Under the pieces are notes generated by a model, which was given only the letters and a program-made list of their open reading frames with translations, made no database searches and was not told the origin of the DNA. Both the position numbers and the translations under genes were made by a program. A stretch of 63,689 nt of DNA, filler included, from Collodictyon triciliatum (lineage: Eukaryota): NCBI GenBank assembly GCA_043381765.1. It is 6 parts of 6 records of this genome, joined end to end, with 100 filler letters (N's around TTAATTAATTAA, not from the genome) between each part and the next. Parts side by side here need not be neighbours in the genome. Positions count along the whole stretch, not along the records: positions 1 to 22,822 come from JBHJMP010000508.1; 5 more parts are not named here. One strand, 5' to 3'. Below, piece after piece: positions 19,201-22,708 of this stretch (positions within the stretch are counted from its first letter, which is position 1; each line of letters begins with the position of its first letter).

Positions 19201-22200
19201 ATAAGTAACTCCTCCTTTCTGGAGACGTTCAGGACATGGACAGGGCGCTTGTGAACATCAGCAACCAGAAGTGCTGCTGCAAGGCTCTTGTCTTCTGCTC
19301 TTATAATAATAGGCAGACCTACTGGCCAGTTTTCAAAGCAATTTAACCATTGTGAGACATTGGGTAAATAGAAAGGCGATGAGTTTTTCTCGTCAAGGGA
19401 AAGCATCAGCGCAAGGGCTTTTGTGGATGCAATTCCAGCCATTGTAGATATATTCCAAAGATTTGATTGGTTCACATTGCAAGCAAGCAAATAATCACAG
19501 AATGAGAATGTTGATACAGTTTTCAGCCACTTTTCGACTTCGACATATGTTTGCAGTGGGGTTGAGTGCGATGGCAGTACTATGGCACTGGTAAATCCAG
19601 ACGAAACAACAGCAGCAGATGTATCTTTCCAAAGCTCTGACTTGTGGGCATGAATTCCTATTCCAACGAATCCCGGCAGAGAGATTCTTCGATGAGAAGA
19701 CCTGGAGTCAAACTTGGAAAGCCCAATGTCGTCTATGCTTCGGTACTGACGAAGTGATTCGATAAACAGTTTGGCGCATTTAATATCGGTAATCAAAGGC
19801 ACTGAAAATTCTACAGCAAGACGACGCGAGTAATATCCTTTGCTGACATACGCCTGCAATTTGCGAGACTTTGTCTTTGAGGGAATATTTATGAATAGGT
19901 GAATCTTTGAGGAGGCTATGTGTTCCATGATGCCAGTTCCATCCCTTGAAATATGAACAAATACATTTTAGTGAATATTTATACGGTCAAAGAAACATAT
20001 AAATTTGAATTTAAATCTAAAGAAAAAAAAAGCCGTAAGTTTAGCCATCAGATTTTATGCAAGAGTGTTTCTTATTGAAAGAAAAAAAAGTATACATAGA
20101 TTCGCTCCAATCGAGTTCCTGTATCGGAATTCCATGCTCGGCCAGAAATTCTGCTGTTCCTTTGGTTCCGAAGAGATTGTACCCAAATTCTTGAAGCCTT
20201 CGTGCGTGCTCGAGAATTTCTTGCTTGTGTTTGTAGGACCCAATTGATAAGAGGATGTTCTCCTTTGGCAGCCTGAAGCCTGTCGCTAGCATTCCTTTCA
20301 TGTACGCATCTGCCCTTGTTTTACCGAAGCAGACCACCTGATTATACATGTACATTTACAGATTGCTTTTTTATTATGCATATCCATCAAAGAAAAACAC
20401 ATATTCTTGACTTTCTTTTCTAAATAATTTGATAATTTTGGAAATATGAGAAAACATTTTTATTGTAAGTTCATTACCTGTCCAGTGGAAGCTGTTTCAA
20501 TACCCAAGACAGGGTCTACACCTTGCAGATTTCCGAATGAAAACTGTGGAACTTTGACGCCAACATAGTCAATCTTTGGAATGACTAACTCTTGAGCTGC
20601 CACAGAGCGTTCCATCATAATCTGCAAGCAATTTTGTTTAGACGTACTTGTACAAATACTTTGGAAATTGATAACTCTGGCAAGTCAAATTAAATACAGC
20701 TTATCAAATGCGAAACCCAGCCATTACACACATACATGTCTGATTCTTTTCGTTAATTCGATTAAAATACATGTCTGATTTTAAAATATTCTTTTAAAAT
20801 TTTTTTTAGTAATTCATGTAAATTACCTTTGTGCCGACTGCAACAAAATCAACACCAAGAGTGGTATAGATAAAAGGAAACAATGCGGATGCTCGGAGGC
20901 TACACTCAATGACTTGGATGTCTTTGTCCTTAGCCACGAAACGAATGTTAAAACAACCAGAGAGATTCAAGCTATGTGTAATCTTCCTTGTGGCTGACTG
21001 AACCTTCTGTACTGTGACTGAATCTAGGTCTTGTGCAGGCAGAATAATCGCAGAGTCGTTCGAGTTGACGCCTGCGTTTTCCACATGCTCAAGAATAGTA
21101 TGCACCAGAATATCTCCATTCTTTGCCACTCCGGCAATTTCTAATTCCTTTGCGTCTGTGATATACTTTGAGATGATGATAGGCTCTGCAGGACGGGATT
21201 CTTGGAAGAGTGCCTTGATATCTTCGTCAGAATAGACAATTCGAGACGGAGCCTCAGATGACGTTCGGACCAGACATGGGTATCCAATCGAGGTTCCAAC
21301 TGCACAAACCTCCTCTAGTGCCAATGCTCTCTTCCAGGCTGGTTGGTCTACACCAATGCGGTCCAACAGGCGAGAAAAGTGGAAGCGATTCATGGCATCG
21401 TCCATCATTTCGGGCGTGGCTCCAATCACACGGACATTCTGACGACTTAGACGCATACTCAGGCGATATGGTCGAGGTCCACCCATGGAAGCAATCACTC
21501 CGTATGCAGACTCTCGCTCGTATATGTCGAGGACTTTCTCCAAGGATAGTTCCTCCCAGTAAAGTCGATCGCTTTCGTCAAAGTCATTGCTGACCGATTC
21601 GGGGTTACAGTTGATAATGATACTATGGACTCCAAGGGAACGAAGAGTGCGGCTGCAGTTGACAACAGAGACGTCATCTTGAATTATTTTGATGTTAGCT
21701 CAATTCAAATGAGAGGGAAAAAAGTCCGTTTTTTTCATTCAATCGTTTATCGTGTACTGTTTCTAATTATATAAAGTAAAGATTATACCAGATATTTCTT
21801 TTGATACAATAAAACATGGAATGAGGTGACATACATTCAGGTCCACTTCCGATTCGGTATACACCACTTCCAAGAACAATGACAGCTCTGTTTGTGCTCA
21901 GAAGTTCTGTGAACTTGACGTCATCTTGCGTAGCATGGTATGTCATGTATAGGACTTTGCTTTTACAAGGATACAACCCAACTGTCCCTCCGAGCTATTA
22001 TACAGATATGTAAGGTTTAATTAAAGTGGAAGTTTTTTTATTGGGCAAATTATCATCTCGATATATTCAACTAACTGTGGATGTCTATAGATCTTGTTAA
22101 TCATCATGGTTAGTTATTGAAATTAACAAACATGTTTCACAAACGGCATGATTTTCATAGAGTGCCTGATTGTGCGCATTGCCAAGGATGTAATCCCGAT

Positions 22201-22708
22201 GCAGTTTGCAATTTGGGCATCAGAAAATCCTAGTAATTTTGCCTTCAAGACTAGAGAGGCCGGCAAATTTGAGCTGTTATGTCTGGAAAGTTCTTTAGAT
22301 GTATCAACAATGACTTGAAGCTTTGTCAGAAACCAGGGATCAATGTGAGTCAGTTTGGATATCTTTTGGATAGGGAAGTCTTGGGGATTAGCCAGAGCAG
22401 ATGCCAGCGCAAATAGGCGATAGTAGCTGGGATTTACTAATTCTTCCTCACTAGCAGTGACCACTGTGTGGTCGAATCCAAGGAATGAGCTGTCGCACAT
22501 ACGCAACGCCTTCTGAAGCGCTTCTTCAAATGTTCGACCGATTCCTAAAACTTCTCCAACGCTCTTTGTAAAGTCGGTGATCTTCACATCAGCTCTGTCG
22601 AATTTTTTCAAGTCCCATCTGGGGATTTTGACCGCTACATGGCCTAAAAGAGGCTCTGAAAAGGCCGTCAGAACGCCGTTGTAATTGTTGATTATCTCGT
22701 CCAATTGG
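16279..22708 (-). CDS. CAD: CAD/URA2-like CPS-DHO-ATC fusion (5' end cut off at scaffold end); ATC intact, CPS.B and DHO degenerate
   Basis: 13 exons splice in frame. CPS motifs [28 protein letters not shown] and EHVENAGV, followed by an MGS-like domain and a DHO-like domain. ATC motifs [44 protein letters not shown] and HPLPR. Stop TAG at 16279-16281. Confidence 0.93.

Follow-up and report, generated by a model that had tools for sequence, protein, structure and literature searches.

CAD is the textbook example of a fused megaenzyme, and the reason why its domains stay fused is debated; the fusion has also served as a marker of deep relationships among eukaryotes. To our knowledge, the only component previously described as persisting in an inactive, structural form was dihydroorotase (DHOase), in fungal Ura2 and as Pseudomonas PyrC'. 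Inactive DHO-like domains are assigned a structural role in the available text of a 2021 review of CAD (PMC8442968), and the available portion of a study of yeast describes a carbamoyl-phosphate pool that is exchangeable between the arginine carbamoyl-phosphate synthetase (CPS) and Ura2 (PMC3792807). Here we describe a CAD-derived gene in a 63,689-nucleotide stretch of DNA from Collodictyon triciliatum (GCA_043381765.1; "the window") and its orthologues in Diphylleia rotans and Rigifila ramosa. The reading we favor, to which we give a probability of roughly 0.7, is that this CRuMs CAD-derived protein contains non-catalytic CPS.B and DHOase domains (in D. rotans also non-catalytic glutamine amidotransferase (GATase) and CPS.A domains) in front of an intact aspartate transcarbamoylase (ATCase), and that the dead domains are under constraint and would act as a scaffold.

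Gene structure and loss of conserved residues

A CAD gene runs along the minus strand of the window (22710-16279), with only its 3' two-thirds present. The spliced model has 13 exons and an open frame of 1451 codons, and all 12 introns are bounded by GT..AG and are 112-255 bases long. Pfam matches follow one another exon by exon in CAD order, from CPS oligomerisation through CPS.B pre-ATP-grasp and ATP-grasp and MGS-like to the ATCase N and C domains. CPS large-chain, MGS-like, DHO(-like), linker and ATCase segments are therefore found on one polypeptide that is colinear with full-length CADs, and the architecture places the protein in the CAD/CAD-like family. The limits that the initial annotation gave for this region, 20478 and 22708, correspond in the gene model to the exon 4 splice donor and the start of exon 1. 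The parts of the gene are as follows (E, expectation value).

Exon 1, 22132-22710, minus strand: last ~86 residues of CPS.A (EPLLGH, TKSVGE) and the CPS oligomerisation/integrating domain (PF02787, E 5.1e-23; CPS1/CarB alignment).
Exon 2, 21835-21994, minus strand: start of CPS.B, LGGTVGLYP (tblastn; gap-free junctions against D. rotans P0404).
Exon 3, 20827-21677, minus strand: CPS.B pre-ATP-grasp and ATP-grasp core with the lost residues (PF25596, E 3.3e-24; PF02786, E 2.1e-13).
Exon 4, 20478-20621, minus strand: end of CPS.B, with GIETASTGQ replacing GVEMASTGE (gene model, P0404 alignment).
Exon 5, 20096-20337, minus strand: first part of the MGS-like (allosteric) domain (PF02142, E 3.2e-09).
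Exon 6, 19170-19944, minus strand: end of the MGS-like domain, then the N-terminal portion of the DHOase-like domain (alignment to human CAD DHOase 6hfe_A, E 4.8e-24).
Exon 7, 18284-18914, minus strand: C-terminal part of the DHOase-like domain, in which the DHAPH region has been replaced or deleted, followed by the poorly conserved DHO-ATC linker.
Exons 8-13, 18097-17892, 17695-17561, 17427-17361, 17169-17091, 16877-16569 and 16456-16282, minus strand: ATCase domain (PF02729, PF00185).
Stop codon, 16281-16279, minus strand (gene model).
Scaffold end, 22725-22922: a 98-base homopolymer (T on the gene strand), then N44, TTAATTAATTAA and N44.

The 5' flank of exon 1 has a polypyrimidine run followed by an AG acceptor at 22712-22711. 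Identical 100-base spacers (N44-TTAATTAATTAA-N44) lie at 22823-22922, 30794-30893, 45634-45733, 55658-55757 and 60885-60984, five copies where 0.07 would be expected by chance. They join at least six unplaced scaffolds, a point that the initial annotation had missed, and therefore features on opposite sides of a spacer are not genomic neighbors. The GATase and CPS.A exons are absent from the window because the first scaffold (1-22822) ends upstream of exon 1, and not through deletion; when the full-length D. rotans orthologue was searched by tblastn, its residues 1-722 matched nothing in the window.

We numbered CPS.B residues by aligning the exon at 21677-20827 (read as 20806-21699, minus strand) to E. 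coli CarB (1bxr_A) and human CPS1 (5dot_A) with HMMER. This exon belongs to the ATP-grasp family, scoring 50.7 bits with PF02786 against a cut-off of 19.8. In the Gly-rich loop after R715 (VVR-PSYVLGGRAM), both G721 and G722 are gone and the loop is three residues shorter. H788 and G790 are lost as GVHSGD becomes GVNSND, Q829 is replaced by Arg (N-V-Q-F to NIRF), N843 by Ser and R848 by Ala, and GGPRP stands in place of GGQxPNN. Changes extend into the neighboring exons, with STGEV becoming STGQV at 20621-20478, IDTVAAE becoming LGGTVGL at 21994-21835, and EPSLDY and MKSVGE becoming EPLLGH and TKSVGE at 22710-22132. R715, E761, H781, E841 and R845 are retained in the CarB alignment. Every motif change listed in the initial annotation was recovered at its place, and the CarB numbering given there agrees with the alignment. 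We take G721/G722, H788, Q829, N843 and R848 of E. coli CarB to bind ATP, metal or substrate in the carbamate-phosphorylating site, with Q829 and N843 as metal ligands. By the CarB alignment and the invariant columns described below, the window protein lacks the carbamate-phosphorylating ATP-grasp residues of an active CPS II. An AlphaFold model of exon 3 (predicted local distance difference test (pLDDT) 76.4, predicted template-modeling score (pTM) 0.73) had its lowest confidence at the VNSNDS loop, and its best PDB match in Foldseek was human CPS1 5dou_B (template-modeling (TM) score 0.89).

The DHOase-like domain has also lost its metal ligands, which the initial annotation had overlooked. 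Relative to 6hfe_A, DVHVH is replaced by GIGIH, the carboxylated Lys by Met, VAHAE by IIRAE and HICHV by HVLNV, and the DHAPH segment with its metal-ligand Asp is missing in the P0404 alignment. Thus, the HxH pair of zinc ligands, the carboxylated Lys, the His, the Cys-His and the DHAPH Asp of an active CAD-type dihydroorotase are not conserved, and no Pfam amidohydrolase match was obtained in this region. The domain matches human active DHOase at E 4.8e-24, as against E 1.7e-11 for the Chaetomium DHO-like domain, and this closer match to the active enzyme may point to a loss of DHOase activity independent of that in the fungal protein. The ATCase domain, in contrast to the domains before it, carries the carbamoyl-phosphate and aspartate motifs (STRT, HPTQ, RxQxER, HPLPR), the canonical AYFRQ and, as judged from sequence, the full invariant set; human ATC 5g1n_A matches it at E 2.4e-32.

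To quantify these losses, we assembled a reference set of 24 canonical CADs with less than 75% mutual identity from 113 full-length hits, and scored columns that are invariant among the 24 with one exception allowed. The DHOase columns (169) were defined on seven active references. Columns kept in the window protein and in its orthologues P0404 (D. rotans) and P0247 (Rigifila) were as follows.

ATCase: window 106/106; P0404 106/106; P0247 105/106.
MGS-like: window 18/20; P0404 19/20; P0247 18/20.
Oligomerisation: window 24/33; P0404 24/33; P0247 24/33.
CPS.B: window 116/171 (68%); P0404 115/171; P0247 124/171.
DHOase: window 76/169; P0404 74/169; P0247 52/169.

The CPS.A tail of the window protein keeps 31 of the 42 columns that it covers. 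Because the columns had been defined on the canonical set itself, we ran a leave-one-out control, in which the canonical CADs (n = 24) retained at least 93.8% of the CPS.B columns (median 98.8%) and at least 95.4% of the ATCase columns. The residue losses in the window protein are domain-specific, lie far outside the canonical range and exceed chance. By a motif test, 17 of the 24 canonical CADs also lack active DHOase motifs, including the red-algal proteins P0417 (Cyanidium) and P0479 (Gracilariopsis), and inactive DHO-like domains may be spread more widely than in fungi alone. These 17 proteins keep 65-91 of the 169 DHOase columns, a range that includes the 76 of the window protein.

Orthologues, expression and constraint

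The orthologues are the EukProt proteins P0404 (D. rotans, 2162 residues) and P0247 (R. ramosa, 1494 residues), both labeled by the source as complete open reading frames (ORFs). P0247 was found by an exhaustive representative search and, once used as a seed, led to P0404. With the CPS.B exon as query, word-index searches of proteins of 521-2000 and of 163-520 residues returned nothing above about 52% identity. The best of the 80 loci kept from a scan of metagenome contigs was likewise 52% identical, with no close relative among them, and these loci did not enter the comparisons. P0101, a GLN-CPS-DHO protein without ATCase, was considered as an active CRuMs complement and was dropped because it is an isoform of a full-length Phalansterium CAD.

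Identity between the window protein and P0404 is 93% in ATCase, 80% in CPS.B, 66% in the DHO-like domain and 44% in the linker; the corresponding values for P0247 are 74%, 52%, 31% and 16%. The window's organism is accordingly related to D. rotans, a freshwater collodictyonid, without being that strain, and both D. rotans and Rigifila belong to the CRuMs supergroup. Both orthologues share the degenerate motifs: the Gly loop and N843 are lost, GGQxPNN is replaced by GGPRP, and LGGTVG/VDGAAG is present. Thus, the trait is not confined to a single genome but is shared by a lineage comprising the window species, D. rotans and Rigifila, which the initial annotation had not recognized. P0404 also covers the N-terminal half. 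Its GATase keeps 30 of 99 invariant columns, with all three triad positions (Cys, His, Glu) replaced, and its CPS.A keeps 126 of 217, with the Gly-rich loop replaced, ECNIQ changed to YLNVH and IIEVNARLSRS to IARLNTVVKQS. The precomputed Pfam list for P0404 is without PF00117 and PF00988 (the GATase and small-chain families). P0247 begins at the very end of CPS.A (MPRWDFKKFD...), and Rigifila may have shed GATase and CPS.A (the N-terminal 700 residues), or the short start may be a transcript-assembly artefact.

We aligned Logan contigs of four public runs, labeled freshwater and with run shares of 0.05-0.11, to the window. Contigs from RNA libraries of two studies exactly bridge 7 of the 12 introns, all in the part of the gene from the DHO-like domain to ATCase: both introns that flank exon 7 and all five within exons 8-13. 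The bridging contigs come from the metatranscriptome RNA runs X2 and X3 of one study and from X1 of the other, whose RNA label is guessed. RNA-library contigs also cover 19375-19526 and 19168-19274 in the DHO-like domain and 22262-22421 in the oligomerisation domain. At the remaining five junctions the model aligns without gaps to P0404, the protein from the D. rotans transcriptome, which confirms them. One spliced X1 contig has a loose end at window position 18089 that resembles the reverse complement of a known cDNA oligo; we take these letters to be the SMART template-switch oligo, which would fit cDNA.

Contigs from the other runs match the window at 99% identity or more. Ten single-base differences were found, eight synonymous and two non-synonymous, in what is a small sample from strains of unknown identity. 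All four variants within the dead domains, among them the two of run X5 in exon 2 (21881 and 21917), are synonymous. The open frame, the spliced RNA-library contigs, the mostly synonymous variants and the conserved orthologues are not those of a pseudogene: the window CAD gene is transcribed and spliced.

The window protein, P0404 and P0247 form one clade in both the ATCase tree and the CPS.B tree (Shimodaira-Hasegawa approximate likelihood-ratio test (SH-aLRT) support 96 and 100, respectively). The trio is nested inside no sampled lineage in either tree, both being midpoint-rooted only, and in the CPS.B tree its branches are long and separate from those of all 24 canonical CADs. Path lengths in CPS.B and ATCase are 0.30 and 0.075 between the window protein and D. 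rotans, and 1.34 and 0.42 between the window protein and Rigifila, whereas they are near-equal in canonical pairs (0.23 and 0.27 for fish-lamprey, 0.45 and 0.48 for Dictyostelium-Clastostelium). Therefore, measured against ATCase, the rate of CPS.B evolution is about 3-4 times the normal one, yet CPS.B remains much better conserved than the DHO-ATC linker (80% versus 44% identity to D. rotans, 52% versus 16% to Rigifila). All three proteins keep 98 of the 171 invariant CPS.B columns, and another 31 are missing from every one of them, which indicates that inactivation predates the collodictyonid-rigifilid split. The former catalytic positions vary within the trio, being H or N at H788, N or G at G790, R or Q at Q829, S or Q at N843 and A or R at R848, which favors drift after loss over a new conserved active site. 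The open frame, the CPS-like predicted fold and the conservation across lineages together indicate that the dead domains are maintained by purifying selection, which is about 3-4 fold more relaxed than in ATCase.

Weighing the explanations

The initial annotation proposed a pseudo-enzyme that is unable to produce carbamoyl phosphate and has been kept for a scaffolding or regulatory role on a working ATCase. The first part is borne out by the CPS.B catalytic and loop residues that are lost and by the degenerate CPS.A and GATase of D. rotans, which argue that the protein would be unable to carry out this reaction. That the ATCase works is likewise suggested by its 106 of 106 invariant columns. 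"Kept" is an apt word because the gene is spliced and expressed, with spliced contigs in RNA libraries, and because Diphylleia, Rigifila and the window's organism have all conserved the dead domains. We propose that the protein would work as an ATCase, that its roughly 1100-1800 dead residues may serve as an assembly or stability scaffold for that ATCase, and that carbamoyl phosphate and DHOase activity would be supplied by separate enzymes. A broader version, on which we are evenly divided, holds that collodictyonids and rigifilids, or at least two of the three lineages within CRuMs, have had, since before their divergence, a CAD in which GATase, both CPS halves and DHOase are dead, only ATCase works and the rest is a non-catalytic platform.

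Several points weigh against these proposals. The verdict that CPS.B is dead rests on residue loss, read with the residue roles of E. coli CarB, and with E841, R845, R715, E761 and H781 kept, some nucleotide binding may be possible. Degeneracy of GATase and CPS.A was seen only in the D. rotans orthologue, the window being without the 5' half of the gene. No RNA-library contig covers the CPS.B exons at 21994-20478, which at the low depth of the contig data is uninformative either way, and the RNA and DNA labels of runs X1 and X5 are guesses. The CPS-like predicted fold is weak evidence because canonical CADs were in the folding alignment. Constraint was estimated at the protein level, from protein identities and ten variants, rather than from codon-level non-synonymous to synonymous rate ratios (dN/dS). 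Finally, conservation of the dead domains falls short of that in canonical CADs, which also fits slow loss with selection only against misfolding, and a canonical CAD of the same species would be hidden among thousands of hits at about 40-50% identity.

The last point bears on the possibility that the protein is a divergent paralogue beside a normal active CAD. Such a paralogue might partner or regulate the active CAD in mixed hexamers without catalysis of its own, or provide a spare ATCase. According to the available text of PMC8442968, CAD particles are built from ATC trimers and DHO dimers, so that mixed particles are conceivable. However, each of the three taxa gave the degenerate form as its best hit, and there was no canonical CRuMs CAD among the species-named hits looked up, which belonged to Phalansterium, Clastostelium, Fabomonas, Sanchytrium, Amoeba proteus and fungi. 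The perfect ATCase (106/106) also suggests that the protein carries the essential ATCase load, and we consider a paralogue unlikely. About equally doubtful is the idea that the dead domains have no function, being dead weight before an essential ATCase, and that these domains are kept foldable only by selection against misfolding and are slowly being shed. The domains outside ATCase are indeed relaxed when set against a canonical pair of similar ATCase divergence, with identities of 41% versus 56% in the oligomerisation domain, 52% versus 78% in CPS.B, 47% versus 58% in MGS and 31% versus 57% in DHO, and the Rigifila ORF, labeled complete, opens only where CPS.A finishes, which would fit a prior loss of GATase and CPS.A. 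Nevertheless, about 1100 residues have been retained without frame disruption in three lineages that are up to 1.34 changes per site apart in CPS.B, 98 of 171 invariant CPS.B columns are kept in all three, and CPS.B is 80% identical where the linker is 44%. Deletion is an easy route to loss, yet only small deletions were seen.

A repurposed ATP-grasp half, with altered chemistry or as a nucleotide-binding sensor, would account for the constraint on the domain, its predicted CPS-like fold and the retention of R715, E761, H781, E841 and R845. This is improbable, given that the phosphate-covering Gly loop is deleted, that the residues aligned to Q829 and N843 (which we take to be metal ligands) are replaced, that the former active-site positions differ among the three orthologues with no new conserved set, and that CPS.A and GATase are degenerate as well in D. 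rotans. We give hardly any weight to a decaying pseudogene or to errors of sequencing or assembly. The scaffold that carries the gene is indeed short and unplaced, has N gaps and ends in a homopolymer, and many conserved residues are lost. Against this stand a 1451-codon open frame over 13 exons with canonical splice sites, spliced RNA-library contigs, an ATCase with 106 of 106 columns, the same substitutions in the independently sequenced D. rotans and Rigifila transcriptomes, and contigs from other runs that are at least 99% identical with mostly synonymous differences. Plain decay and sequence error are contradicted by these data.

Neighboring features and known CAD systems

Other genes were recognized in the window. 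On the scaffold of the CAD gene, two exon-like frames at 10861-12455 (plus strand) have matches to the chitinase family, glycosyl hydrolase family 18 (E 3.6e-11 and 1.7e-15), and the first of them runs into a long His-rich stretch. An inorganic pyrophosphatase exon lies on the next scaffold at 23036-23260 (plus strand; PF00719, E 2.1e-18), directly after the spacer and a (GAGAA)n microsatellite, and an exon at 32170-32541 (plus strand) matches ribosomal protein L31e (PF01198, E 9.4e-24). Microsatellites and homopolymers are very dense throughout the window, for example at 14945-15450, 22923-23015, 27145-27250, 27900-28130 and 34080-34660. Most N gaps and scaffold ends fall inside such repeats, which probably explains the fragmented assembly.

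Returning to the proposed scaffold, the initial annotation knew of no described pseudo-CPS in a CAD. Our literature searches, whose scope ended short of subscription journals and supplements, turned up no description of one, nor does the available text of the 2021 review (PMC8442968) contain one. If our reading is right, no CAD with a pseudo-CPS would have been known before this one, and the question of why CAD is a megaenzyme could be studied in it as a natural experiment. Some 1100 residues of the window protein (about 1800 in D. rotans), including both ATP-grasp halves, would persist without catalysis before a perfectly conserved ATCase. The CAD architecture would then have a function independent of catalysis, as a platform for ATCase and perhaps for stand-alone partner enzymes. 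The first step of pyrimidine synthesis would have been rewired in a deep-branching and poorly studied supergroup, with carbamoyl phosphate coming from a different enzyme, and an annotation of "carbamoyl-phosphate synthase" from domain hits would mis-state the metabolism of such organisms. If confirmed, the protein would also be a natural separation-of-function variant for the contributions of CPS and DHO to hexamer assembly, stability and regulation.

The fungal CAD-like proteins (S. cerevisiae Ura2; Chaetomium thermophilum, 5NNL) resemble the protein described here in being a GLN-CPS-DHO-like-ATC polypeptide that retains a DHO-like domain without its metal site; their ATCase is active. However, GATase and both CPS halves of Ura2 are active and regulated, whereas CPS.B is degenerate in the window protein and CPS.A and GATase are degenerate in D. 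rotans as well. The window protein therefore differs from the Ura2 type in that its CPS catalytic positions are not conserved, even though an inactive DHO-like domain is present. The animal and amoebozoan CADs (human CAD, Dictyostelium PYR1-3) have the same domain order and linker layout, and the window ATCase is 60-64% identical to those of fish and Dictyostelium CAD; these proteins have all four activities, whereas only ATCase keeps its conserved residues in the window protein. In Pseudomonas, a dead DHOase, PyrC', is retained because ATCase needs it for assembly, as stated in the available text of PMC8442968, which cites Schurr et al. 1995. Unlike the window protein, PyrC' is a separate bacterial subunit that corresponds to DHOase only and includes no CPS. 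Human CPS1 keeps a dead glutaminase-like domain in which the catalytic Cys is replaced by Ser (PMC8442968, available text). Both ATP-grasp phosphorylation domains of CPS1 are active, whereas in the window protein the phosphorylation domains would themselves be the dead parts.

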